Origin: a virus
Lineage: Duplodnaviria > Caudoviricetes
Virus record (IMG/VR): IMGVR_UViG_3300032277_002806
Coordinates: 1-36,738 of that record
Direction: 5' to 3' (one strand)
Length of the DNA: 36,738 bases
The notes beneath the pieces are model-generated. The model did no database searches. It saw only the letters and a list, made by a program, of their open reading frames with translations, and was not told the DNA's origin. Shown in pieces: positions 13,638-32,338 of this stretch. Each line of letters starts with the position of its first letter. Positions within the stretch are counted from its first letter, which is position 1. Position numbers and translations under genes: made by a program.

Positions 13638-14264
13638 TCAGGTCTGGTTGGCCGAGCTCTTGATCCAGGGGACGTCCGGGGCGGACTGCTTCATGGTGCC
13701 GAAGATGGCGCCGCGGGCCTCCTGGTACTCGGCGTCGGTCATGGTGCGGACCTGCTCCGGGCTGAACTGGGCAGCGCCGGGCTGGATGGTGCGCCCCTTC
13801 TGGCCGGGGAAGCGAGTCTGGCCGCCTGGGGCGCCCTGGCCACCCTGACCGCCCTGGCCACCTTGGCCACCTTGGCCACCCTGACCGCCCTCGCCCTTCG
13901 GGATCAGCGACCGCAGCACCAGCGGGGCCTCGTCGGGCTTCTCGATCAGGCCCTTCATCCAGTCGTCGAAGGCCGGGCGCCCCTCGGCGGGCAGGCGGCC
14001 GTACTGCCACTCGAACGCCTCCTGGGCGTCCGCGTCGGTGACGCCGGCCCGGGCCATGCCCATCGCGACGGTGTGGCCCTGCTCGAGGGCGGCGCGCTCG
14101 GCCTTCATGGTCTCGATGGTCTGCGCGTGGCGCTCGGCGAGCTTCGCGCCCTTGGACGCTTCGGCGAGCTCGCCGCGCACTGTGGTCAGCTGGCCCTTGA
14201 GCTCGTCGCGCTCGCGGATGATCTCCTGGAAGCGGGCGTAGGGGACGGTATCGGGATCGGGCAT
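13638..14264 (-). CDS. Capsid scaffolding protein with GQG-repeat linker
   Basis: VPYARFQEI motif, coiled coil, (GGQ)n linker, C-terminal helix MTDAEYQEAR; between portal and capsid. Confidence 0.8.
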   Translation of the reverse strand: MPDPDTVPYARFQEIIRERDELKGQLTTVRGELAEASKGAKLAERHAQTIETMKAERAALEQGHTVAMGMARAGVTDADAQEAFEWQYGRLPAEGRPAFDDWMKGLIEKPDEAPLVLRSLIPKGEGGQGGQGGQGGQGGQGGQGAPGGQTRFPGQKGRTIQPGAAQFSPEQVRTMTDAEYQEARGAIFGTMKQSAPDVPWIKSSANQT

Positions 14265-14277
14265 GGCGGAGTCCTGG

Positions 14278-15855
14278 TCAGGCGGGGTCGGGAGGGGTGG
14301 GCAGTGCCGGCTTCGTGGGCGGCTTGGACTTGAAGCGCTCGTTCTCTTCTCGGATGCGCAGGAGGTGCGCCTCGGCCTCGCTGCGGGTCGTCCCGGGGTG
14401 CTCGGCCTGGTAGGCTTCGACGATGGACATGCGCCCCTCGGCGATGAGCTCCCGGTGGTGCTCGCGTCGGTTCTTGAGCTCCTGGGGGCTCAGCGGGATC
14501 GAGGTGTAGTCGAGGCGGTAGCCGGTCTCGGGCAGCGGGTCGGGGTAGGCGCCCGCGAGGTTCACGATCGCCGCGGACTTCTCGATGAGCTCGAGGTCGC
14601 GCGGCTGGAACTGCGGCGTGTAGACCGACTGCGCCTCGCGCTTCCCGTCGCGGGAGATGCTCAGCGCTGCGCCGCTCCACGCGTCCCCGCTGGAGCTCCG
14701 GACGATGTTGGCGGCGTCGATGCCGGCGGAGCTGACCACGGCGGTCTCGAACGCGGAGATCGCCTGCTGCAGCTCCAGGACGTTCGCGCTGGAGCCCCAC
14801 TGGCCCACCTGCGGATTCTGGACGCCGGGGTCGGCCTCGAGGTGCAGGAAGGCGGTGGGGTCGACGACGACGGCGCTGCGGGGGCCGGCCTCGGTGTCCT
14901 CGGGCTTCGTGCCCGCGACGTAGACCCCGACGCCCCAGCGCTGGGGCCAGGACGCCTGGAAGACGCAGTGCTGCCAGAACGTCCAGAGCGCCGAGATGTC
15001 CAGGCTCGCCTCGACCAGCTCCAGCCAGTCCCAGGCGTTCCAGACGCTGCCGGTGGCCTCGGCGTGGTAGAGGATCCAGGGGACGAAGGGGCGCCCGGCG
15101 CGCTCGCCGGTCGTCCAGCGCCAGGGGTAGGCGGCGCCGACCATCGGCTTCCCGATGAGCGCCTCGGTCAGATCGGCGCCCGGCTTCCCGCTCATGGTCG
15201 CCTCGAAGACGCTGTAGCTGGGCGCGTCCGCGTTGGAGATGTCGTACACCTCCCACACCCACTGCCACTTCTTGTTGACCGGGCGCCAGCGGAGCTCGCG
15301 GACGATCACGGGGCGGTCGGGGTCGTCCGCGGTCGCCTCGACGACGACGGTATCCGGCGGGGCGAAGCGGTAGGTCAGCCCCTGCTCGGGCTGCCAGTCG
15401 ACGCGCACCAGGCCCTCGCGCAGGCCCAGCACCATCGCCTGGATGCGCCGCATGCGCGGCCAGAGACCCGTGCGCCCCAGCAGCCCCGGGCCCACGGGCA
15501 CGCGACGCAGCGCCGTCCGGAGCTGCCCCTCGGCGCCCTGGACGGGGACCTGGCGCTCCTCGATGCGGTCGCACAGGAAGCCCGGGAGCTCGCCTTCGAC
15601 GGCGTGCCGGACGCGCGGGGGCGAGAAGTACAGGACCGCCAGCTCGTTGCAGATCGCCGAGAACGGGTTCTTGGCCTGGCTGACCGGACCGATCGCGCCG
15701 CGCCTCGTCTCGCCGAAGTGCTTGAGCATGGCGTTGTGCAGATCGGTGTACCACTGCCCGGTGAGCAGCCGCCGTCGCCGGCGGGTCTCCAGCCAGCGCT
15801 GCGCCTCGAACGGGTCAGGCGGCGTGGGCGGCGTCTGAAAGCTCGGCTGATGCAC
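14278..15855 (-). CDS. Portal protein (start uncertain: GTG 15855 or upstream)
   Basis: About 525 aa directly after terL; AWSGAALSI motif and helical C-terminus typical of portals. Confidence 0.8.
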   Translation of the reverse strand: MHQPSFQTPPTPPDPFEAQRWLETRRRRRLLTGQWYTDLHNAMLKHFGETRRGAIGPVSQAKNPFSAICNELAVLYFSPPRVRHAVEGELPGFLCDRIEERQVPVQGAEGQLRTALRRVPVGPGLLGRTGLWPRMRRIQAMVLGLREGLVRVDWQPEQGLTYRFAPPDTVVVEATADDPDRPVIVRELRWRPVNKKWQWVWEVYDISNADAPSYSVFEATMSGKPGADLTEALIGKPMVGAAYPWRWTTGERAGRPFVPWILYHAEATGSVWNAWDWLELVEASLDISALWTFWQHCVFQASWPQRWGVGVYVAGTKPEDTEAGPRSAVVVDPTAFLHLEADPGVQNPQVGQWGSSANVLELQQAISAFETAVVSSAGIDAANIVRSSSGDAWSGAALSISRDGKREAQSVYTPQFQPRDLELIEKSAAIVNLAGAYPDPLPETGYRLDYTSIPLSPQELKNRREHHRELIAEGRMSIVEAYQAEHPGTTRSEAEAHLLRIREENERFKSKPPTKPALPTPPDPA

Positions 15856-15918
15856 TGTCACACCAGCAAGGTACCGGCTTTTGGGGCGCACTGCAATCCT
15901 GAGCAGGTGAGTACATGA

Positions 15919-17343
15919 TCAGTAGATTCTGGCAGCGACCTCGCGCCGGGGCCGGAGCACCGCGCGGTCGAACAGGAGCTCCGTCGCGTACCTGGCAGCG
16001 TCGATCGGATCCTTGTGGTGATCGTCGGGTCTCCCCTCCCAGCGCTTCATCCCCTCGATGAGTCCCTGGCAGCGGAGGTTGACGGTGGCCTGGTTCTCCT
16101 TGAAGAGGCTGTTCATCAGGCGCACGCCGCGGGTGATCGAGCCCCGGCGCTTGTTGGGCGTGAACAGCTTCAGCCCCTCGGCGTGCAGGTGCCGGCGGGG
16201 GCGGCCGATGATCTTGGAGAAGGCCATCATCAGGTCGCTGTTGGACTTCGCGTTGCCCCAGTAGTCGCCGCCGTGGGCCCGGTCGCCCACCCAGTAGTCG
16301 ATCTCCGACCAGCCCCCGATCCACGGGTGGCGCTCGATCATGGCGAGGATGGCCCGGGCGTCGTCCTCGGTCGAGGTGCGCCCGTCGCTCCGGGCCTCGT
16401 CGAGGTACCAGACGCGCTCACCGTCGTCGGAGCAGCACACGAGCTGGGCGGCCTGGCGGCCGGCCTTGGCGCCGTGGTCGATGCCGATCGCCGTCCAGAC
16501 GAGCTCGCCCGGGCCCTCGTTCGTGACGCAGCCGTCACCGAAGGCGGTGAACCACCGGCCGGCCAGGACCGGATCCCAGTCGCCCTCGACGCGCATGCCG
16601 CGCTCGACCTCGAGGTACCCGGCGATCAGGTCCTCGATCTCCTCGGGCGTCTTCCAGGGCTTCTCCAGCAGGCCCCCGCGGACGGTGATCGCGTCCATGG
16701 TCAGCGAGGTGTGGAGCTCCGCGATCGTCCCCTCCTTGACCTTCTTTCGCAGGTACTCCAGCGGCGGGCTCTCCGGCGTCGGCGTCATGGAGATCCGCAA
16801 GGTGCCGTTGAACCGGGAGAGGCGCGGCATGACCTCGCCGTAGACGCGCTCCGGCGGGGGCTCGTCGAGGTAGGCCCCGTGGTAGCTGCCGCCGGCGATC
16901 CGCTTGGCGCCCTGCTCGTAGGTCGCGAAGATGATCACGCTGCCGGCGCCCGGGCCGGACACGAAGGGGATCCTGGGGTTCTTGAAGCCCGCGAAGCCCC
17001 CGCCGGGCTCGTAGCGCACCCGCTCGTCGATCTCGTCCTTCGGGAGCATGTCCCACAGCTTCGCGCACAACGGGTCCATCTGCGTCCAGCTCTCGCCGAT
17101 GACCAGGAGCCGGACGGGCGGGCGGTGGACGGGGCGCAGCGGGTGCGTTCCCCGGGCGGTGTGGACGATGTCGAAGCTGAGCCCGTAGGTCTTGCCGATC
17201 TGGTTGGCGCCGCGCCAGAGCGCGCGGCGCGGGAGGAGCGAGGCGAAGTCGGTCTGGGGGGTGGTGAGTCGGACGTGGGGCAGCGGGTTTCGCTGCGACC
17301 GCGTGCTGGTCTTCCGCGCCAGCGCCAGCGCCCGGCGCGCCAT
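15919..17343 (-). CDS. terL: Terminase large subunit
   Basis: Walker A GANQIGKT, Walker B AYLDEPP, coupling motif SMTP, RNase H-type nuclease IGIDHG...GDR...DPIDAARY. Confidence 0.95.
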   Translation of the reverse strand: MARRALALARKTSTRSQRNPLPHVRLTTPQTDFASLLPRRALWRGANQIGKTYGLSFDIVHTARGTHPLRPVHRPPVRLLVIGESWTQMDPLCAKLWDMLPKDEIDERVRYEPGGGFAGFKNPRIPFVSGPGAGSVIIFATYEQGAKRIAGGSYHGAYLDEPPPERVYGEVMPRLSRFNGTLRISMTPTPESPPLEYLRKKVKEGTIAELHTSLTMDAITVRGGLLEKPWKTPEEIEDLIAGYLEVERGMRVEGDWDPVLAGRWFTAFGDGCVTNEGPGELVWTAIGIDHGAKAGRQAAQLVCCSDDGERVWYLDEARSDGRTSTEDDARAILAMIERHPWIGGWSEIDYWVGDRAHGGDYWGNAKSNSDLMMAFSKIIGRPRRHLHAEGLKLFTPNKRRGSITRGVRLMNSLFKENQATVNLRCQGLIEGMKRWEGRPDDHHKDPIDAARYATELLFDRAVLRPRREVAARIY

Positions 17344-17886
17344 TCAGCCGGCCTCGACGAACCGCGCCCCGGTGCGCTCCATGTACTCCGCGACGAAGAT
17401 CTCCAGGTCGTCCAGCTCCAGCTCTCGGGCCTCTTCCCGGAGCCGGTCTGCGTACTCCTCGGCCGAGAGCTGGTCGTCCGGGTCGGCCTCCTCGGGCAGG
17501 CGCTGGAGTTCGCCGTGGATCTTCAAGACCAAGGCGCGGGCCTTCGCCGCGGCGGTGTGCGACCCGTGCTCGCTGGCCCGGGCCGCGTCGCTCAGGGCCT
17601 CGGCGCCGAGCCGCACCAGGAAGTCCCGGGGCGAGAGCCGCATGCGCTCGGCGAAGTCCTCGCCGTCCTGGTCGTCGACCGCCGCGACCCGGCCGCCGCC
17701 CTGGTGCACCTGGAGGTCGACCAGCTCCCCGGCCGACCCTTCGCGCCACCACTTCCGCAGGGTGTTGTGGCTCACCCCGATCTCACCAGCGACCTGGCGG
17801 AACCGGGGGCGGCCTTCGTTGTCGTCAGCGCTGGCCTGGAGGGCATCCAGGGCGTTGGCGCGATCGTTGGGAGAGTACTTGCCCAT
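17344..17886 (-). CDS. terS: Terminase small subunit
   Basis: N-terminal HTH (FRQVAGEIGVSHNTLRKWW), helical C-part, abuts terL. Confidence 0.75.
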   Translation of the reverse strand: MGKYSPNDRANALDALQASADDNEGRPRFRQVAGEIGVSHNTLRKWWREGSAGELVDLQVHQGGGRVAAVDDQDGEDFAERMRLSPRDFLVRLGAEALSDAARASEHGSHTAAAKARALVLKIHGELQRLPEEADPDDQLSAEEYADRLREEARELELDDLEIFVAEYMERTGARFVEAG

Positions 17887-17970
17887 AAACTGTTCAGGAG
17901 TTCAGTGTTTCCTGTTCAGCGCGCGCGCGCAAGTCGAGAACAAGACCTCCCCCCCTCGAAGTCTGGAGGA
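17887..17970. other. Candidate packaging-initiation (cos/pac) region
   Basis: Gap upstream of terS with three GTTCAG repeats, a (GC)6 run and a C7 run. Confidence 0.35.
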
Positions 17971-18354
17971 TCATGCCTCCCTCCCCGACCAACGGCCGCG
18001 CTCCAAGGCGAGGACAGCGCAGGCCTCGCCGAGGGTGGCGCCGGCGCCACCCTCATGTGAGATCCCGCCTGGCCCGCTCCCTGCGGGGACTGCGACCACC
18101 CAGCACCGCTCGGGGGGCGCGTCCGGGCGGTGCCCGCAGGTGACGCCGGCGCCATGCAACACCAGCAAGCAGCCCCCGGTCGCGTCGTCGTCGAGGGCGG
18201 GGAAGGCGCCGGGGCGGACGAGGTCGGGGTGGGAGACTGCCTCGTAGTGCAGCGTGCGTCCGGTGGGGCTCTCCAGCCAGAACGCGGACAGCATGCCGCG
18301 CTGCCAGCGCCAATGGGGCAGCGAGGTGCTCACCTGGGCGATGACGGTGTTCAT
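17971..18354 (-). CDS. Phage hypothetical protein (127 aa)
   Basis: ATGA overlap with upstream gene and GGAGG RBS; WRWQRGM...PALDDDATGGCLL. Confidence 0.7.
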   Translation of the reverse strand: MNTVIAQVSTSLPHWRWQRGMLSAFWLESPTGRTLHYEAVSHPDLVRPGAFPALDDDATGGCLLVLHGAGVTCGHRPDAPPERCWVVAVPAGSGPGGISHEGGAGATLGEACAVLALERGRWSGREA

Positions 18355-19184
18355 GCCTCCCTCCCGAAGCCAGCCGGCGCCCGGTGCACGCCAGGCGCCC
18401 CGTCTCCCCGATCGCGGTCCATGCCGACGACCTGGGTCAGGTCGACCAGCTCCCCGGTGGCGAACACGAAGCACTCGTTGCCGCCCTTCGGTGCGTCGAT
18501 CCAGGCGTCGGTGAAGCGGGCCTTCTCGGTGTCGGTGAGATCGAGGGTGAGCAGGTAGTCGCAGTCCTTCAAGACGACGTGCCAGCGCGTTGCGGGGTCC
18601 TCCTGTTGGGGGTGCGGGGTGGGCACGAAGTCTTGACCGCGCGCCTGGAGTGCGAACCGCGCCGCGTCGATGGCTCCCCGGAGCGGGTCGACGTCCCGAC
18701 CGGTCCACCCGGTGAGCCCCTCGATCAGCCCGCTGCAGCGTGGCGAGACCACGGCGCGATTCGACTTGAAGAGGTGGTTGATGTCGCGGCAGCCCCGGGT
18801 GATGCCGCCGGGGCTCTTGTAGGGCGTGGTGATCCGGAGTCCGAAGATCTGGAGTTCCTGAACAGGTCGCTCCAGCGCCTTCGCGAACTCCGCCATGAGA
18901 ACGCTGTTCGACTTCCGGCCGCCGGAGTATTCGCTCGCCCGGCTGGCCGTCCAGTAGCCGACGTCACCCCAGCCAAAGCCGTTGCGGGCGAGCATGTCGA
19001 GGATCGAGTCGGCGTCAGGGTGAACCTCGTCGAGGAACCAGACGCGGCTGCCGTCTTTCGACCAGCAGACGAACTGAGCCGACACGCCGTGGAGGATGCC
19101 GATCGAGAGGATGACCTGGACGTCGGGCGGGTCTGCGGAGAGGCGCGCTTCGGTGAAGTCGGTGAAGAATCGGGGGTGGTTCAT
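18351..19184 (-). CDS. Stand-alone, probably inactive paralogue of the TerL nuclease domain plus ~90-aa C-terminal extension (277 aa)
   Basis: Colinear match by eye to this genome's TerL C-terminus over ~180 aa; IGIDHG>IGILHG, VGDR>TASR, KDPIDAARY>RGAIDAARF. Confidence 0.85.
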   Translation of the reverse strand: MNHPRFFTDFTEARLSADPPDVQVILSIGILHGVSAQFVCWSKDGSRVWFLDEVHPDADSILDMLARNGFGWGDVGYWTASRASEYSGGRKSNSVLMAEFAKALERPVQELQIFGLRITTPYKSPGGITRGCRDINHLFKSNRAVVSPRCSGLIEGLTGWTGRDVDPLRGAIDAARFALQARGQDFVPTPHPQQEDPATRWHVVLKDCDYLLTLDLTDTEKARFTDAWIDAPKGGNECFVFATGELVDLTQVVGMDRDRGDGAPGVHRAPAGFGREA

Positions 19185-19225
19185 GGTGTGGTCTCGGAAG
19201 GGGAGACGCTTAGTGCAGGGCTGCA

Positions 19226-20035
19226 CTAAGCGTCCTGGGGGTGAAGGTTGGTGGTCGCGAAGAGGGTGGGCTGCGCATCGCGCTCCAAGGCGTCGCCGTC
19301 GAAACGCAAGCTCGGGAGCACGGCATCGACGTAGCGCACCTCTGGCTCGACACAGACGTACCGGCGCGCCTCGGTTGGGGAGAGGCGCTCGATCGCCACC
19401 GCGGCGCGACAGGTGCCGCCGAAGGGCTCCAGGATCAGGTCGCCGGGGCGGGAGCTGGCGCGGAGGATGCGATCCCAGAAGAGCAGCGGCTTCTGGCAGG
19501 GATGGATCGGGCGGCGCCATGTGCAGTCATCGATCTTGTCGCGACCCGGTTCCGCCTCCCGGGTGCGCTCGGTCTGGAAGTTCCTGTGGTTCAGGGGCCA
19601 GATGTTGTTGAGGCCCTGCGGATGGGCAAACGGGGGCCCGCCGCGAGTGTAGACGCCGCAAACCTCTGTGGAATCCGTCCAGGTTTTCGCGTTCCTCCAG
19701 CCGACCATGCTGGCCGTCGGCGTCTTGTCCCAGACGATCAGCCGCCGGAAGGTCCAGCCGTGCGCGAGCAGGAGCGGGTGGAGGGTCGCCCAGCTCTCCG
19801 CGGTGCCCCACAGGTAGACGGAGGCCGACGGAGCGCAGGCGATGCCCCACGCTTCAACGTGGGGCCGATACCACTCCACCAGGTCCTGCCCCGTCGCCTT
19901 GTCCCACTCGCCCTTACCGAGCCCATACGGGCCGTCGGAGAGGACCAGGGAGACGCTGCCGGCGTCGAGGGTCGGGTAGACGTCCTCGGCTGGCGCGATG
20001 TGGATCTGCCCGCGGCGAAGGGTGATCGAGGTCAT
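19226..20035 (-). CDS. DNA N4-C/N6-A methyltransferase, beta class
   Basis: Motif IV variant SDGPY, IVWDK, HPCQKP, SAM-binding LEPFGGT. Confidence 0.9.
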   Translation of the reverse strand: MTSITLRRGQIHIAPAEDVYPTLDAGSVSLVLSDGPYGLGKGEWDKATGQDLVEWYRPHVEAWGIACAPSASVYLWGTAESWATLHPLLLAHGWTFRRLIVWDKTPTASMVGWRNAKTWTDSTEVCGVYTRGGPPFAHPQGLNNIWPLNHRNFQTERTREAEPGRDKIDDCTWRRPIHPCQKPLLFWDRILRASSRPGDLILEPFGGTCRAAVAIERLSPTEARRYVCVEPEVRYVDAVLPSLRFDGDALERDAQPTLFATTNLHPQDA

Positions 20036-20052
20036 GGGGGCTCCGGGTGGGG

Positions 20053-20838
20053 TCAGGTGGTGGGGGCGGGGCTCAGCGCCGCGGCGAGGGCCTCGCGCTG
20101 GCTCTCCAGGCGGCTTTCGAGTCCCACGCGGGACAGGACCTCGTCGGCCGGGAGGCGAGCGAGCAGGGCCTCCAGCACGGCGATGTCACGGCGCAGCCAG
20201 TCCAGACCCAGCGCGGGCGCTGGGAGCTCGTCCTCGTCGAGTTCGCTGCACTTCCAGCAGTAGCCGGAGGTGTCCCCCGTGGGCTGCCTGCACCCAAAGC
20301 AGGGCGGCCGATCGGGGTCGACGTTGGGGGCGGGCCGGAGGTCGGCGGGGTGGTCGGGGTTCCAGTCCCAGGCCCACATGAAGCCGCAGCCGGCAGCCTG
20401 GGCGGCCTGGCGGTCGCTGGCGCGGTCGCCGACGAAGAGGGTGTTGGGCGCCCCGATCCCTGCGTCGGCCATGGCGTGGAGCAGGAGGCCGGGGGCAGGC
20501 TTCCGGCAGCTGCAGCCGGCGTCTGGAGCGTGCGGGCAGGTGAAGACGGGCACCTCGCGGGGGTCGTCGTTCAGGCGATAGAGCCCCTCGGCGACGAGCA
20601 GGGCGTAGAGCTCGGTGACGATCTCCAGGTGCTCCTCCTCGGTCATGAAACCCAGCCCGACCCCGCCCTGGTTGGTGGCGAAGGCGAGGGCGCCGCCCGC
20701 GGCGAGGTGGGTCTGGATCCGAGCGACGACGCCTGGGAGGAGGGCTTGTTCGCCGATCCGGTTGGGGCAGGGCTGGCCGGGGACGGTGCAGCGACGGACT
20801 GTGCCGTCGAGGTCGAGGATCAGGAGCTGGGGGGTCAT
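20053..20838 (-). CDS. HAD-IIIA phosphatase (GmhB/HisB-N-like) with C-terminal Cys-rich extension
   Basis: DLDGT, TNQGG, CPH...CSCRKPAPG, VGDRASD motifs; extra CxxC...CxxC. Confidence 0.88.
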   Translation of the reverse strand: MTPQLLILDLDGTVRRCTVPGQPCPNRIGEQALLPGVVARIQTHLAAGGALAFATNQGGVGLGFMTEEEHLEIVTELYALLVAEGLYRLNDDPREVPVFTCPHAPDAGCSCRKPAPGLLLHAMADAGIGAPNTLFVGDRASDRQAAQAAGCGFMWAWDWNPDHPADLRPAPNVDPDRPPCFGCRQPTGDTSGYCWKCSELDEDELPAPALGLDWLRRDIAVLEALLARLPADEVLSRVGLESRLESQREALAAALSPAPTT

Positions 20839-21473
20839 GAAGTACTCCGGGTGGTCACGACGTTGTCGTCGGCCTCGAGCTGTGGGGGCTGGTGGACGTC
20901 GATCAGGTGCGCCTGGCCAAGGCGGGCCCGCCTGATCGCCTGCTTCGCCTCCGCGCGGATCGTCTCGCGAACCCAGTCCAGGGGGGAGCGCTTGCCGCCG
21001 ACGCTAATCGTGGAGGTGTCTCGAATGGTGTTGAGGCCGCCACAGGCTGCCAGGGCGGCCTGGACGGGGAACACGCCGTCGGGCCCCAGGACCTCGGCGG
21101 CGATCTCCAGGGCCTGAGAGGTGCGCGTGCTGCGGGGCAGGTACCGCGGGGCGGTACCATTGGAGAGCCGGAGCTGCGGCCCTCCACAGGCAGCATGAAT
21201 AAACCGCCAGACGTCCTCGGGGGTCACCGAGCCGGCGGCCTCGGGCACCAAGGCGAGGATCTGGCCGGGCGTGGGCCAGAAGCGGTGGGTGCCCGAGGCG
21301 AAGGCGTCGAGGGCGGCGGTGAAGACCTCGGGCTCCAGGTGCCCGAGGATCCGCAGCCAGCCCCGGAGGGCGAGCCGGCGCATGGTGGGGTCGGCGTAGG
21401 TCTTGGGGCGCGGGTAGCTCAGCGCCTCCAGGTAGGCCAAAGCCTCGGCGATGTGTTCAGCGCTTAGGGCCAT
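20835..21473 (-). CDS. Helicase loader/inhibitor-like replication protein (G39P/P-position)
   Basis: W..IL....PE....A......RFWPTPGQI motif; directly after initiator. Confidence 0.65.
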   Translation of the reverse strand: MALSAEHIAEALAYLEALSYPRPKTYADPTMRRLALRGWLRILGHLEPEVFTAALDAFASGTHRFWPTPGQILALVPEAAGSVTPEDVWRFIHAACGGPQLRLSNGTAPRYLPRSTRTSQALEIAAEVLGPDGVFPVQAALAACGGLNTIRDTSTISVGGKRSPLDWVRETIRAEAKQAIRRARLGQAHLIDVHQPPQLEADDNVVTTRSTS

Positions 21474-22374
21474 GGGGATCCTCTTGGTGTGGGTTCTCGG
21501 CTTGGAGCTGTTGGAGGTCGCTGAGGAAGCTGGTGTCAGCGCTGGGAGCGGGAGGTGACTCCCCCCGGGCGCGCCGGAGGTCACCCATGAAGCTGTTGTC
21601 GAGGTCGGCGACGGTCGCTGTCTGGGCCGGGCGGGCTTCCAGCGGTGGGGTAGAGTGGCCGCGCTCCTGGAGCTGGGCTCGGAGCTTCAAGCAGGCGCGC
21701 TCTCCGAGGGCTGGGCCGCCTTGGAGACCCAACGGCCCAGGGTCCCCGAACCGAAGCGCGGGCCAGCCGCCAGCCTGGACGACTTCGACCAGGTGCGCCG
21801 TGTCGCGGACGCCTCGCTGGCGCAGGCGCTTCAGCAGCCGACCACCGGCGAGCGATTCGAGATCGGGAGAGAGCTGAGCCGCCGCTCCCGCGGCGCTCGG
21901 GCTGGCGAGGGGGGTAGGGGGGAGAGAGAGATCTTCTTCAGGGTTTTCTTCAGGGTCTTCTTTGGGGGGATCTGAGATCCCGGGGTCCGGGGGATCTGAG
22001 ATCCCGGGGTGGGGGGATCTCAGATCCCCGGGATCTTCTGACCCGGGGATCTGAGATCCCGGGGTCCCCGGGATCTTCTGACCCGGGGGTAGACCACTCC
22101 AAAGGATCTCCCAGAGGGAGAGACGCCCGGGCCGAATCGTCCGGCGAATGACTCCACGCTTCGCGAGCGCTCGCAGCCGGCGCTTGGCAGTGTCCGGATG
22201 CAGATCCGCCATGCGCGCCAGATCTGCGATCGACGGGTAGCAGGTGGTCCAGTCCGCGCCGCCCTTACGCCAAACCACCCGGCGTGTCATGCCGAGTAAC
22301 AGAAGGCGCTCAGCTCCAGAGAGCCCAGAGTCCAGCACCAGGGCCTGGGCCAGGCCTGAGCAGGAAGGGGTCAA
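21457..22374 (-). CDS. Replication initiator (HTH_36 / lambda O-like)
   Basis: CYPSIADLARMADLHPDTAKRRLRALAKRGVI winged helix; internal iteron array. Confidence 0.85.
   Translation of the reverse strand: MTPSCSGLAQALVLDSGLSGAERLLLLGMTRRVVWRKGGADWTTCYPSIADLARMADLHPDTAKRRLRALAKRGVIRRTIRPGRLSLWEILWSGLPPGQKIPGTPGSQIPGSEDPGDLRSPHPGISDPPDPGISDPPKEDPEENPEEDLSLPPTPLASPSAAGAAAQLSPDLESLAGGRLLKRLRQRGVRDTAHLVEVVQAGGWPALRFGDPGPLGLQGGPALGERACLKLRAQLQERGHSTPPLEARPAQTATVADLDNSFMGDLRRARGESPPAPSADTSFLSDLQQLQAENPHQEDPHGPKR
21967..22088. repeat. Iteron array / probable replication origin
   Basis: GGGATCT(G/C)AGATCCC at 21967, 21991, 22014, 22046; CCCCGGGATCTTCTGACCCGGGG at 22026 and 22066; T-rich tract at 21931-21963. 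Confidence 0.8.
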
Positions 22375-22646
22375 GGACAGCTCCCGGCTTCAGTGGCGAG
22401 CCACCGCTCACAGCGTGTTCGGGTCCATCGCTCGCCTCTGTTCCATCGGCTGGCCAGCTTGCGCCGTGAAGGCACGCGGGCCACGCCTTCGCGCCCTCCA
22501 GTCGCCTCCCACAAGGCCACCTGCGCCAGCCAGTAGCGCAGGTCCATTTTGCAAACCCCCTCGGGCAGAGGGGGGCCTGCGGTCTGGAGGGCCGCCATGA
22601 TCTGGACCCAGTCTCGCAGGTCCACTTCGAAGAACGAATCGTCCAT
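22371..22646 (-). CDS. Small HTH-like protein (91 aa)
   Basis: Coupled to both neighbours; PSRRKLASRWNRGERWTR resembles an HTH. Confidence 0.55.
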   Translation of the reverse strand: MDDSFFEVDLRDWVQIMAALQTAGPPLPEGVCKMDLRYWLAQVALWEATGGREGVARVPSRRKLASRWNRGERWTRTRCERWLATEAGSCP

Positions 22647-23233
22647 CAGGCACTCCGCAGGTTCGTGCTGAGCCAGGCGCAGCGCTGGCCGCTCATGCAG
22701 CGGTTGAGCTCCTCGAACGGGATCGCGGCGCTGACTGTCCACCAGTAGTGCCCGCCGCTCCCCTGGCTGCGGGTCGCCTTCGGGTACCACCTGGGGTTCT
22801 GTTTCCAGCGCTCGAAGTTCGCGTGGCAGGCGCGCCGGAGTTCGTCGAAGGGCAGCAGGTAGGCGACCCCGAGCAGGGGGATCGCGTAGACGACGTAGTC
22901 GCAGACCTTGCCGTCATCCAGCGCCCAGCCGATCTGGTGCCAGCGGGTGACCAGACGTCGTTCGGGGTCGAACTCGCAGCGGCTGAACTCCTCGAGCAGC
23001 ACGTCGCGGTAGTCGGTCGAGCGGATCTTCTCGTCGATCCTGAACGCGGGGCCGGACTTCAGGTAGACGATTCGGTCGACCCCTTGGGTCTGGAGAGCGC
23101 AGCGTTCGCTGGGGACGCGCATCGAGGTCAGGTAGTCGGGCCAGATCTGGCGGTAGAGGTCCTCCCAGGCTGCCTCGGAGACAGCGCCGCCCTCCCAGGC
23201 CGCCCGCTCCTGGAAGGAGTAGACGCGGCTCAC
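22646..23233 (-). CDS. PD-(D/E)XK-family nuclease-like protein (195 aa)
   Basis: GTGA-coupled to the methyltransferase; QTQGVDRIVYLKSGPAFRIDEKIR gives D...DEK. Confidence 0.7.
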   Translation of the reverse strand: MSRVYSFQERAAWEGGAVSEAAWEDLYRQIWPDYLTSMRVPSERCALQTQGVDRIVYLKSGPAFRIDEKIRSTDYRDVLLEEFSRCEFDPERRLVTRWHQIGWALDDGKVCDYVVYAIPLLGVAYLLPFDELRRACHANFERWKQNPRWYPKATRSQGSGGHYWWTVSAAIPFEELNRCMSGQRCAWLSTNLRSA

Positions 23234-24834
23234 AGGAGCTCCGGCACAGGCGAGAGGTGCTGCTGTCGTGCCGGTGTCGCGGCCTCCAGCCAGGAGTTGA
23301 CGGCCTCCAGGTAGCGGAGCTCGTCGAGCTCGGCGCCGACGTACTGGCGCTCGGCCGTCCTGCAGGCGCGGGCGAGCGGTGCCCAGCCCGCGTAGAGGTC
23401 GAGCACCCGCCCCCCGACAGGGCAGAAGGTCTCCATCAGCTCGTGGAGCCACCCCACAGGCTTCTCCGAGTGCTGGGTGCGCTTGGAGGCGTGCGCGTTG
23501 GAGGTCGAGCGGATGAGCGGCTTGGGGCTGCCCTTGGTGAACAAGAGCAGGATCTCGCTGTCGCCCCGCCAGTGGTGGCCCGTGCCGAGGCCGCTGGTCT
23601 TCATCCAGGCGCCGCCCGACTTGTAGACCCACCGGAAGCGGTTGGCGTTGGCGACCCGGAAGAAGTCTCGGAGGCGCGGGAAGGTGCACCACATCAGGAG
23701 ATAGGTGTCCTGCTTCGCGCAGTCCCAGGACGCGTCCAGCACGCTCACGATCGTCTCCATGGAGACCGTCTCGTAGTGGTCGGCGGCGCTTCCGTTGAGG
23801 CCCGAGTTGTAGTGCCAGGGGGGATCCGCCTGGACCAGGTCCGCCCCCTCGACCTCGGCGAGCAGGTCCGCGAGGTCTCCGTGGCGCAGGTCGATCTCGG
23901 GCGGGAGCTGGGCGTCGGCCAGGTGCCGGCGCAGGTACTCCAGCCGCTGCTGATCGCGCTCCGCGCGGCGGACAGCCCGCAGCGCCCTCATTTCGCTGGA
24001 GGTCATGGCCGGCTCGGGCTTCTCCTCCTCCAAGGCTGGTACGATCGAGAGGCCGGGCTGGTCGGGGACAGCCTGCTCCCCGTCGACGAACTCGACGGCC
24101 TCCTCCAGCGAGAGCGCGCCGGTCTCGACCTCCTCGACCAGCTCCGGGCTCCCCTCGTCCAGGACGCGCCTGGCTTCCTGGACCTCCTCCTGCGAGACGC
24201 CCAGGGTCTGGGCCACCTTCGCCCGGATCGCCTCGGGGTCGTCCAACTCCGCGGCCTCGCGCAGGCCCTGCTGGATCCGCTCGGACGGGGACGGCGCCGG
24301 CTGGCGGGTCCGCATGTCGTAGACCTGACCGCCCCGCTGGACTCGGCGGCTATCTGCCGTATGCGGCAGATGCGGATAGTCCTCCGCGGCCGACAGCTCC
24401 GCTCGGACTCGGGCGACCATGCCTTCGCTGCGGGGGTGGCCGATCTCTCGGGCGAGCCTGCGATCGGACCACACGGCCCACTCGGGCTGGGCGAGGAGGT
24501 TCTGGATCATGCGGCGCTTGTCGGCGCGGGAGACGGTGGCGACCAGATCGGCGTTGCCCGTGCACGAGATCCGCACGGCCTCGGCCCAGGTCACCTCGTA
24601 GATCACGACGTGGATCTGGTCGCGGCCGGCGCGCTTGTGGGCGGCGTGGCGGTGCCAGCCGTGGGCGAGGTAGAGGACGCCGTCGACGCGCGCCACGTCG
24701 ACCGGGGGGAGCTCGTAGCCGGGCTCAGCGAGCAGCGCCGCCAGGCGCTCGACCTGGGCGTCGTCCAGGACAGCGCGGGCTTGGAGGCGGGGGTCGAGGC
24801 GCAGGGCGTCGGGGTGAAGGCAGGTGGGGATCAT
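23230..24834 (-). CDS. ParB-like N-domain + HTH fused to MT-A70-like N6-adenine methyltransferase (534 aa)
   Basis: LPPVDV...LAHGWHRHAA (ParB/Srx), WSDRRLAREIG (HTH), ADPPW, LLMWCT, HSEKP, VLDLYAG. Confidence 0.85.
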   Translation of the reverse strand: MIPTCLHPDALRLDPRLQARAVLDDAQVERLAALLAEPGYELPPVDVARVDGVLYLAHGWHRHAAHKRAGRDQIHVVIYEVTWAEAVRISCTGNADLVATVSRADKRRMIQNLLAQPEWAVWSDRRLAREIGHPRSEGMVARVRAELSAAEDYPHLPHTADSRRVQRGGQVYDMRTRQPAPSPSERIQQGLREAAELDDPEAIRAKVAQTLGVSQEEVQEARRVLDEGSPELVEEVETGALSLEEAVEFVDGEQAVPDQPGLSIVPALEEEKPEPAMTSSEMRALRAVRRAERDQQRLEYLRRHLADAQLPPEIDLRHGDLADLLAEVEGADLVQADPPWHYNSGLNGSAADHYETVSMETIVSVLDASWDCAKQDTYLLMWCTFPRLRDFFRVANANRFRWVYKSGGAWMKTSGLGTGHHWRGDSEILLLFTKGSPKPLIRSTSNAHASKRTQHSEKPVGWLHELMETFCPVGGRVLDLYAGWAPLARACRTAERQYVGAELDELRYLEAVNSWLEAATPARQQHLSPVPELL

Positions 24835-32066: not shown

Positions 32067-32070
32067 TTTT

Positions 32071-32252
32071 TGGGCGCAGATCTGGGCGCAAGCCTCGTAA
32101 CTGTCTGCAATGAGTGGCTATCCCAATTTGATCTTGACCAACTGTTCAACACTCGAAGTTCAATAATTACAGTTGGTTGGATTCTGGTTGGCTCGCTGAA
32201 TCACCCAGAAAACGCCCCTCTCGGCCCCAGCAATGGGCGCAAAGTGGGCGCA
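32071..32252. other. Probable attP
   Basis: AT-rich segment after int flanked by paired TGGGCGCA repeats (32071, 32083; 32234, 32245); central inverted repeat ACCAACTGT (32137) / ACAGTTGGT (32169). Confidence 0.7.
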
Positions 32253-32338
32253 CATGTTTACGGCGCTGTAGACGATATTTGCTCAGCGATCATAGATAGG
32301 CGCCCCACCCAGGCGACTCACACCCTACGATCCAGGGC

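Follow-up and report, generated by a model that had tools for sequence, protein, structure and literature searches.

The 36,738-nucleotide stretch of DNA analysed here, referred to as the window, is an entire viral contig with a GC content of 71%. Owing to its 127-base terminal repeat, the phage genome is probably complete and circular. Family matches identify an integrase (PHROG 1), replication genes, a methyltransferase, the large terminase subunit (TerL), a scaffold, a capsid and a tape measure protein, and an integrase combined with replication, packaging, capsid and tail genes indicates a temperate tailed phage. The recognisable genes from replication through tail are all located on the minus strand. 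The open reading frame (ORF) under study, whose product is named P0001, is situated where the replication genes end, after the last methyltransferase gene and two ORFs upstream of terS (Table 1).

An earlier sequence-only reading of this DNA gave the coordinates, strand, length and intact frame of the ORF correctly, as re-checking confirmed. The stop-to-stop frame extends further, to 19526, and there overlaps the methyltransferase gene in another frame. The ATG at 19184 is taken as the start because it falls at the TerL domain boundary and because the sequence upstream of it ranks within the best 1.4% of minus-strand positions. With a GC3 of 0.88 and a codon-adaptation index of 0.61, the gene resembles the neighbouring methyltransferase gene. 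Additionally, 17939-21000 is present, letter for letter, in a second assembly that probably derives from the same sample.

Table 1. Position of P0001, its parts and its neighbours in the window
Feature	Position	Strand	Remarks
P0001 ORF, 277 aa	18351..19184	-	dead TerL-type nuclease domain, linker and small C-terminal domain
P0001 residues 1-182	18639..19184	-	RNase H/RuvC-like TerL nuclease fold without the first two catalytic aspartates
Leu31, replacing the first catalytic Asp (TerL Asp289)	19092..19094	-	GAC>CTC; Asp in 120/121 relatives
Ser81, replacing the second catalytic Asp (TerL Asp354)	18942..18944	-	GAC>AGC; Asp in 121/121 relatives
Gly170, replacing the auxiliary-site Asp (TerL Asp445)	18675..18677	-	GAT>GGA; Asp in 120/121 relatives
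Asp173, equivalent to TerL D448	18666..18668	-	sole catalytic Asp retained; Asp in 121/121 relatives
P0001 residues 183-198, linker	18591..18638	-	likely old gene end plus intergenic DNA; carries start-site motif AGGACYCCGC (18592-18601)
P0001 residues 199-277	18351..18590	-	likely once a separate small gene; begins at in-frame ACG
N6/N4 DNA methyltransferase	19226..20035	-	upstream neighbour; distal replication operon; family match
Perfect inverted repeat, 14 bp, 2-base loop	19205..19234	.	spans methyltransferase stop codon; 20 bases upstream of P0001 ORF start
127-aa ORF without family	17971..18354	-	downstream neighbour; start overlaps P0001 ORF stop (ATGA)
Probable terS	17344..17886	-	weakly matches an HTH; 12 frames of related loci encode similar proteins
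terL, 474 aa	15919..17343	-	ATPase and nuclease intact; all catalytic aspartates present
Probable portal	14278..15891	-	position between terL and scaffold/capsid; conserved in related loci; no family match

The inverted repeat (z -6.2, reached in 0 of 200 shuffles) has no U-tract. The hairpin, which separates the methyltransferase gene from the P0001 gene, could be a terminator, a processing site or an operator and may influence the expression of P0001. A sigma-70 promoter scan of 17300-20300 detected none, a result that is uninformative at 71% GC, and PADLOC matched 0 of 7 proteins. P0001 and the next ORF end in a shared 15-base stretch (17973-17987 and 18352-18366), and both proteins finish in GREA; containing a GGAGG site and the ATGA overlap, this stretch forms a repeated coupling cassette. 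The short non-coding segment before terS (17887-17970) carries three CTGAAC repeats on the minus strand and includes the point at which the second assembly breaks (17939-17953), while many related viral contigs start 400-800 bases before terL; the segment is a possible late promoter or packaging start. Elsewhere in the genome, a GGGGATCTGAGATCCC-type unit recurs in both direct and inverted orientation at 21960-22093, within the replication-initiator gene; these repeats are likely origin iterons. There are two methyltransferases in the genome, and at 23230-24834 a ParB-like domain is fused to a DNA methyltransferase. The ORF after this gene, at 22646-23233, encodes 195 aa that include a DEK motif; by eye it is PD-(D/E)XK nuclease-like, and it has no family match. 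Furthermore, the AT-rich region directly after the integrase (32070-32330), with a 15-base near-palindrome at 32070-32091, is a candidate attP.

Nuclease homology and altered active-site residues

In a BLASTP comparison with the TerL of the window, residues 5-180 of P0001 aligned with residues 263-455 of TerL, 84 of 193 positions being identical (44%, E 4e-43). The colinearity with the TerL C-terminus that had been described from the letters alone is borne out, all the quoted motif pairs being present in this alignment. The N-terminal packaging ATPase domain is absent, as the alignment begins at TerL 263 and no Terminase_6N match was obtained. The three aspartate substitutions proposed earlier (D>L, D>S and D>G) were found at TerL D289, D354 and D445, and the two loops reported as shortened have lost five residues after the first aspartate and eight after strand 3. 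The former loop, L0 in G20c, is deleted together with its Lys and Arg, and all the deletions are in-frame. By motif position, as opposed to residue-level superposition, D289 is equivalent to G20c D294 and SPP1 D266, D354 to G20c D347 and SPP1 D321, and D448 to G20c D429 and SPP1 D403; D445 sits three residues before the last aspartate, as SPP1 H400 does. Several features had been missed by the sequence-only reading, namely the retention of the third catalytic aspartate (D448), the change of a fourth conserved aspartate (D349>G) and the further changes K444>R, S402>G, G353>A and Y452>F. Hence, two of the three catalytic carboxylates of TerL are replaced (L31 and S81) and one is kept (D173). Around the cleft, the basic residues R355, K366, K398 and R451 are kept, with Arg in place of K444. 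E53 and D57 are likewise retained, as they are in active TerLs.

Such a combination of residues is exceptional among the relatives. Across a wider alignment of 230 proteins, the four sites read DDDD in 187 and DDHD in 27, whereas 13 fragments lack the first site and one protein has Gly there. P0001 alone among these 230 has a residue other than Asp at D354, two fragments falling short of the site. With regard to the auxiliary site, the 214 complete four-site rows with an intact triad hold D in 187 cases and H in 27; the TerL family of the window reads K-D-x-x-D-A-x-R-Y, compared with D-H-x-x-D in many terminases. A split two-gene terminase was considered and rejected, as the terL of the window is whole with all its aspartates and the separate copy is the dead one.

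The AlphaFold model of P0001 shows a block of pLDDT 85-98 for residues 1-180 and values of at most 60 beyond, a confidence that is not independent of active TerLs because the input alignment was made of them. Terminase nucleases rank first in a structure search with the model. Residues 1-185 match D6E (5oe8) with a Z of 15.3 and an rmsd of 3.1 over 158 aligned residues, P22 follows with a Z of 15.1, and RuvC resolvases are matched with a Z of about 8. The model thus has the RNase H/RuvC-like fold of TerL C-terminal domains. The retention of the structural core, claimed earlier, is supported by this match and by the 26 of 28 hydrophobic columns that stay hydrophobic in P0001. Homology to TerL, the lost aspartates and the fold match together therefore identify a dead terminase nuclease domain which, as in pseudo-enzymes, has conserved its fold and lost catalytic residues. 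According to excerpts of the G20c and SPP1 studies, D294, D347 and D429 of G20c are indispensable and its loop L0 is modelled on DNA (PMC5389553), while the D266N mutation of SPP1 abolishes pac cleavage (PMC3592435). By analogy with these equivalent mutants, P0001 would be devoid of cleavage activity. P0001 is a TerL-derived pseudo-nuclease with what is likely a captured neighbour gene, and not a TerL.

Tail, descent and selection

The extra tail of about 90 aa noted by the sequence-only reading is present (95 aa), yet it is built like a separate gene, which that reading did not recognise. The motif AGGACYCCGC has four copies in the window versus 0.64 expected, and 0 of 100 shuffles reach four, a figure that is post hoc as the motif was first spotted by eye. 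In three copies, a single base separates the motif from the ATG of a gene (at 14264, 12523 and 8864). The remaining copy lies, in exact register, one base before an in-frame ACG that forms codon 199 of P0001, with a Shine-Dalgarno-like AGGAGG at the same place. Codon 199 coincides with the start of a predicted small domain. From this DNA anatomy, the tail likely originated as a gene that was captured. A dead nuclease gene some 195 codons long appears to have lost its stop codon, and the ATG of the next gene appears to have become ACG. Weak translation initiation at the ACG is possible. The P0001 gene offers a clear snapshot of a probable gene fusion in which the start-site motif of the neighbour is still readable within the coding sequence.

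Structural comparison of the tail gave a lead only. Residues ~195-260 superpose on ESM Atlas models of small Actinomycetota proteins with TM values of 0.62-0.67 over 61-66 residues, and some of these look-alikes are named DUF3107, the TM values being below the bar for naming a family. A Pfam search of the tail gave no DUF3107 (PF11305) match even at E up to 10, so that the look-alikes are structural only, and no homologues of the tail were found among proteins of 30-151 aa, the fetched related loci, Pfam or PHROGs. The single-sequence fold of the tail has a pLDDT of 51. On the strength of the look-alikes, about 65 residues of the tail are predicted to resemble small DUF3107-type proteins in fold.

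P0001 is a singleton, with no orthologues in any collection searched. A word-index protein search returned P0001 itself and two TerL-type proteins. A scan of 1.84 billion representatives gave 119 matches, all of them except the self-match confined to the nuclease part, and the second catalytic aspartate is substituted in no other protein among them. The shorter matches look, from their sequences, like TerL fragments cut off at contig ends. In DNA scans, P0001 had no match in viral contigs or genomes and matched only its own contig in metagenomes, and no close match was found in cultured phages. Scans with conserved motifs would miss dead copies because the motifs include catalytic residues; a motif pattern avoiding these residues detected 40 viral loci, 38 of them in frame and all with the second aspartate. 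A second separate copy was found in none of the 45 nuclease-profile-positive records among 49 related viral records, of which only eight are at least 90% complete (five of those with a match); one record contained two pieces in a single frame. Similarly, none of the 158 matching loci among 170 related loci has a nuclease match in two frames, many of the 170 starting near terS with the region upstream unseen.

The best BLAST match of P0001 among the 230 proteins is, narrowly, the TerL of the same phage (141 bits, next 139). In trees of subsets of 122 nuclease domains, its end branch measures 1.21 against a median of 0.21 with 50 rows, where it is the third-longest, and 1.55 against 0.32 with 24 rows, where it is the longest. 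Given this branch and the lack of a second copy in 45 records and 158 loci, the gene is accessory and fast-changing. An AU test of a clade of P0001 with its own TerL (p 0.124) neither shows nor rejects duplication within the genome. A two-residue insertion, common to the phage's own TerL and five of the other 120, is missing from P0001, which therefore either split off before the insertion or derived from a related phage. Inserts occur in some other TerLs of the family (P0133, P0171, L099 and L100); they are either located in the ATPase, where they look intein-like by eye, or in the nuclease domain, with a length of about 25 aa. Between P0001 and TerL, pS reaches 0.47, with 0.42-0.46 in unrelated GC-rich pairs, and the synonymous sites look saturated; the split is therefore old and dN/dS against TerL is unobtainable, as it is among orthologues for a singleton. 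Since the start-site motif still lacks any mismatch and the synonymous sites look saturated, it is probable that the dead domain stood alone for most of its history.

Neutral decay was simulated by point mutation, without indels, in 3000 runs, each continued to the number of altered invariant columns seen in P0001 (9 of 23), with the phage's own terL standing in for the true donor. The neutral runs accumulated a mean of 29.5 foreign residues in the 147 other columns versus 14 observed (P 0.017) and kept a mean of 21 of the 28 hydrophobic columns versus 26 observed (P 0.025). Moreover, they showed a mean of 5.4 radical changes, a value as low as 0 being reached in 0 of 3000 runs (P 0.001 with unbiased mutation). 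A cruder first simulation reached only mild significance (17 of 26 kept versus 12.2; P 0.03), and the open frame survives in 6-18% of neutral point-mutation runs (P 0.06-0.18). The GC3 value was discarded as proof of selection, as GC-biased neutral runs also reach 0.88. Where conservation is at least 85%, radical changes affect 3 of 7 aspartate columns versus 0 of 26 others (p 0.006, with a statistic chosen post hoc), and the five changes at non-Asp columns are mild. Invariant columns show no excess of change compared with the other columns that do not vary among the four nearest TerLs (10 of 24 versus 22 of 53, p 1.0; ungapped, 9 of 23 versus 13 of 44, p 0.58). The 'targeted' loss of catalysis suggested earlier thus holds in so far as radical changes fall on aspartates, but not in the sense that invariant columns changed more often. 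The wider claim of a catalytically dead domain with its fold kept and probably maintained agrees with the alignment, the structure and the simulation, the last of which suggests purifying selection on the fold. P0001 has probably been kept by selection for a non-catalytic role as a binding-only terminase mimic.

Possible functions and comparison with known systems

Terminase is one of the main patterns sensed by bacterial immunity. A protein that is folded, dead, optional and fast-changing points to a binding role. P0001 is an intact lone copy of the TerL nuclease domain that has lost two of three catalytic aspartates and two loops with its fold core kept; in the mechanism proposed here, selection would have kept it as a binding-only mimic. 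It would then occupy a protein, of the host or of a rival, that targets the terminase nuclease and, judging from gene order, might act before the real terminase is made. Our reading of P0001 as such a selected mimic, most likely a decoy against a protein directed at the terminase nuclease, is tentative; the decoy leads among the mechanisms, albeit weakly, and the protein it binds may be a sensor or inhibitor that has yet to be described. The more specific option of an Avs decoy, raised by the sequence-only reading, receives mixed evidence from excerpts of two reports. In its favour, SeAvs3 is described as a two-cavity sensor whose firing needs both TerL domains (bioRxiv 2026.08.25.746987) and as binding the folded nuclease extensively (PMC13601566), so that a copy of the nuclease alone could occupy a single cavity and leave the sensor unfired. 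On the other hand, SeAvs3 recognises TerL active-site residues of the class lost in P0001, EcAvs2 and Upx respond to the ATPase domain, and KpAvs2 is activated by the lone nuclease domains of 3 of 5 terminases (excerpts of PMC13601566), whereby P0001 could even be a trigger. It appears somewhat unlikely that phages repeatedly make dead half-terminase mimics which block terminase-sensing immunity, occupying one of two sensor cavities without setting the sensor off, with P0001 as a nuclease-half example that absorbed its downstream neighbour.

Against the decoy, the apparent losses of a stop and a start could mark relaxed selection. P0001 would then be a relic of recombination or duplication, its harmful nuclease removed, tolerated and drifting, with the small downstream gene perhaps as the useful part. 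Its singleton status in all collections searched, its long end branch in both trees, the invariant columns without excess change and the apparent loss of the stop and of the neighbour's ATG agree with such an origin. Nevertheless, the relic is considered unlikely, as neutral decay is rejected on three measures by simulation, all deletions are in-frame, and the start falls at the domain boundary. Additionally, synonymous saturation and the perfect motif suggest that the dead domain was probably long-lived as its own gene, and an independent stand-alone copy exists in Caulobacter phage Sansa. Interference with packaging is rather improbable; here the dead domain would dock on portal, TerS or TerL, delaying or tuning the phage's own packaging or blocking a co-infecting relative. 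The isolated SPP1 nuclease domain pulls down procapsids via the portal and full-length SPP1 catalytic mutants still bind (excerpts of PMC3592435), and both the match of P0001 to its own TerL and the position of its gene two ORFs upstream of terS fit this role. However, the TerL C-terminal tail, a proposed portal anchor in excerpts of PMC5389665, is replaced after the last helix. Moreover, the lack of a second copy in the 45 related records, few of them complete, argues against a core packaging part, and no sign was seen of the prophage expression that TerI-type defence needs.

It is quite improbable that P0001 serves as a DNA-binding pseudo-nuclease which grips DNA ends or branches uncut, protecting them or regulating late genes or the packaging site. 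Late regulators often occupy the corresponding position in temperate phages, and the kept basic cleft residues with the acids lost, as well as the RuvC resolvases among the fold matches, favour contact with DNA. However, P0001 lacks the loop that is modelled on DNA in G20c, including the Lys and Arg of that loop, the net charge of its nuclease domain is 0, and the isolated P74-26 nuclease domain shows no detectable DNA binding in excerpts of PMC5389665. An active nuclease with a rebuilt site is extremely improbable. Although D173, E53 and D57 are kept, the metal-bridging aspartate is now Leu, and its loss abolishes cleavage by SPP1 and P74-26 (excerpts of PMC3592435 and PMC5389665); E53 and D57, being present in active TerLs too, are no replacement for it. 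As a natural dead nuclease-only copy, P0001 is a ready reagent for asking whether half a trigger can block Avs1-3, Upx or packaging proteins, while its being a single sequence from an uncultured phage limits the reach of the finding.

Among known systems, P0001 shares its fold with the TerL nuclease domains of D6E (5oe8), P22 (4dkw), HK97 (6z6d), SPP1 (2wc9) and G20c (5m1f). With the nuclease domain of its own TerL it shares 44% identity, the last catalytic aspartate and the basic cleft residues. Unlike TerL, it has no ATPase, the first two catalytic aspartates and the auxiliary one are lost, two loops are deleted, the C-terminal tail is replaced, and it is encoded by a separate gene beside a complete terL. 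The Avs1-3 and Upx sensors, the Listeria prophage TerI/anti-TerI pair and the anti-Avs3 proteins ORF55 and ORF83 illustrate that terminase is a defence target which phages counter; none of the counter-measures described in the excerpts consulted is a terminase copy, in contrast to P0001. TerI and Rip1 target the small terminase subunit (excerpts of PMC13601566). Literature searches of open PubMed Central and bioRxiv brought up no article on a terminase-derived decoy or dead terminase paralogue.

A comparable protein is encoded by Caulobacter phage Sansa (KT001913). Its gp95 (AKU43499; 14881-15426 of locus L104), annotated as 'DNA-packaging protein', is a stand-alone TerL nuclease domain of 181 aa, whose gene lies a few genes from an adenine methyltransferase. 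It is 25% identical to Sansa TerL (E 2e-14) and has a Pfam Terminase_6C match. The first aspartate of the TerL motifs is kept in gp95, whereas a Glu and the last Asp are replaced, and these changed acidic residues we take to be catalytic on the basis of the TerL motif. Like P0001, gp95 stands alone in the replication arm beside a full TerL and has changed acidic motif residues. Unlike P0001, which has no Terminase_6C match, it belongs to another TerL lineage, keeps the first aspartate and has no fused tail. As gp95 is an independent case, the stand-alone nuclease-copy arrangement has therefore arisen at least twice, and Sansa provides a cultured and tractable system for studying stand-alone degenerate TerL nucleases.
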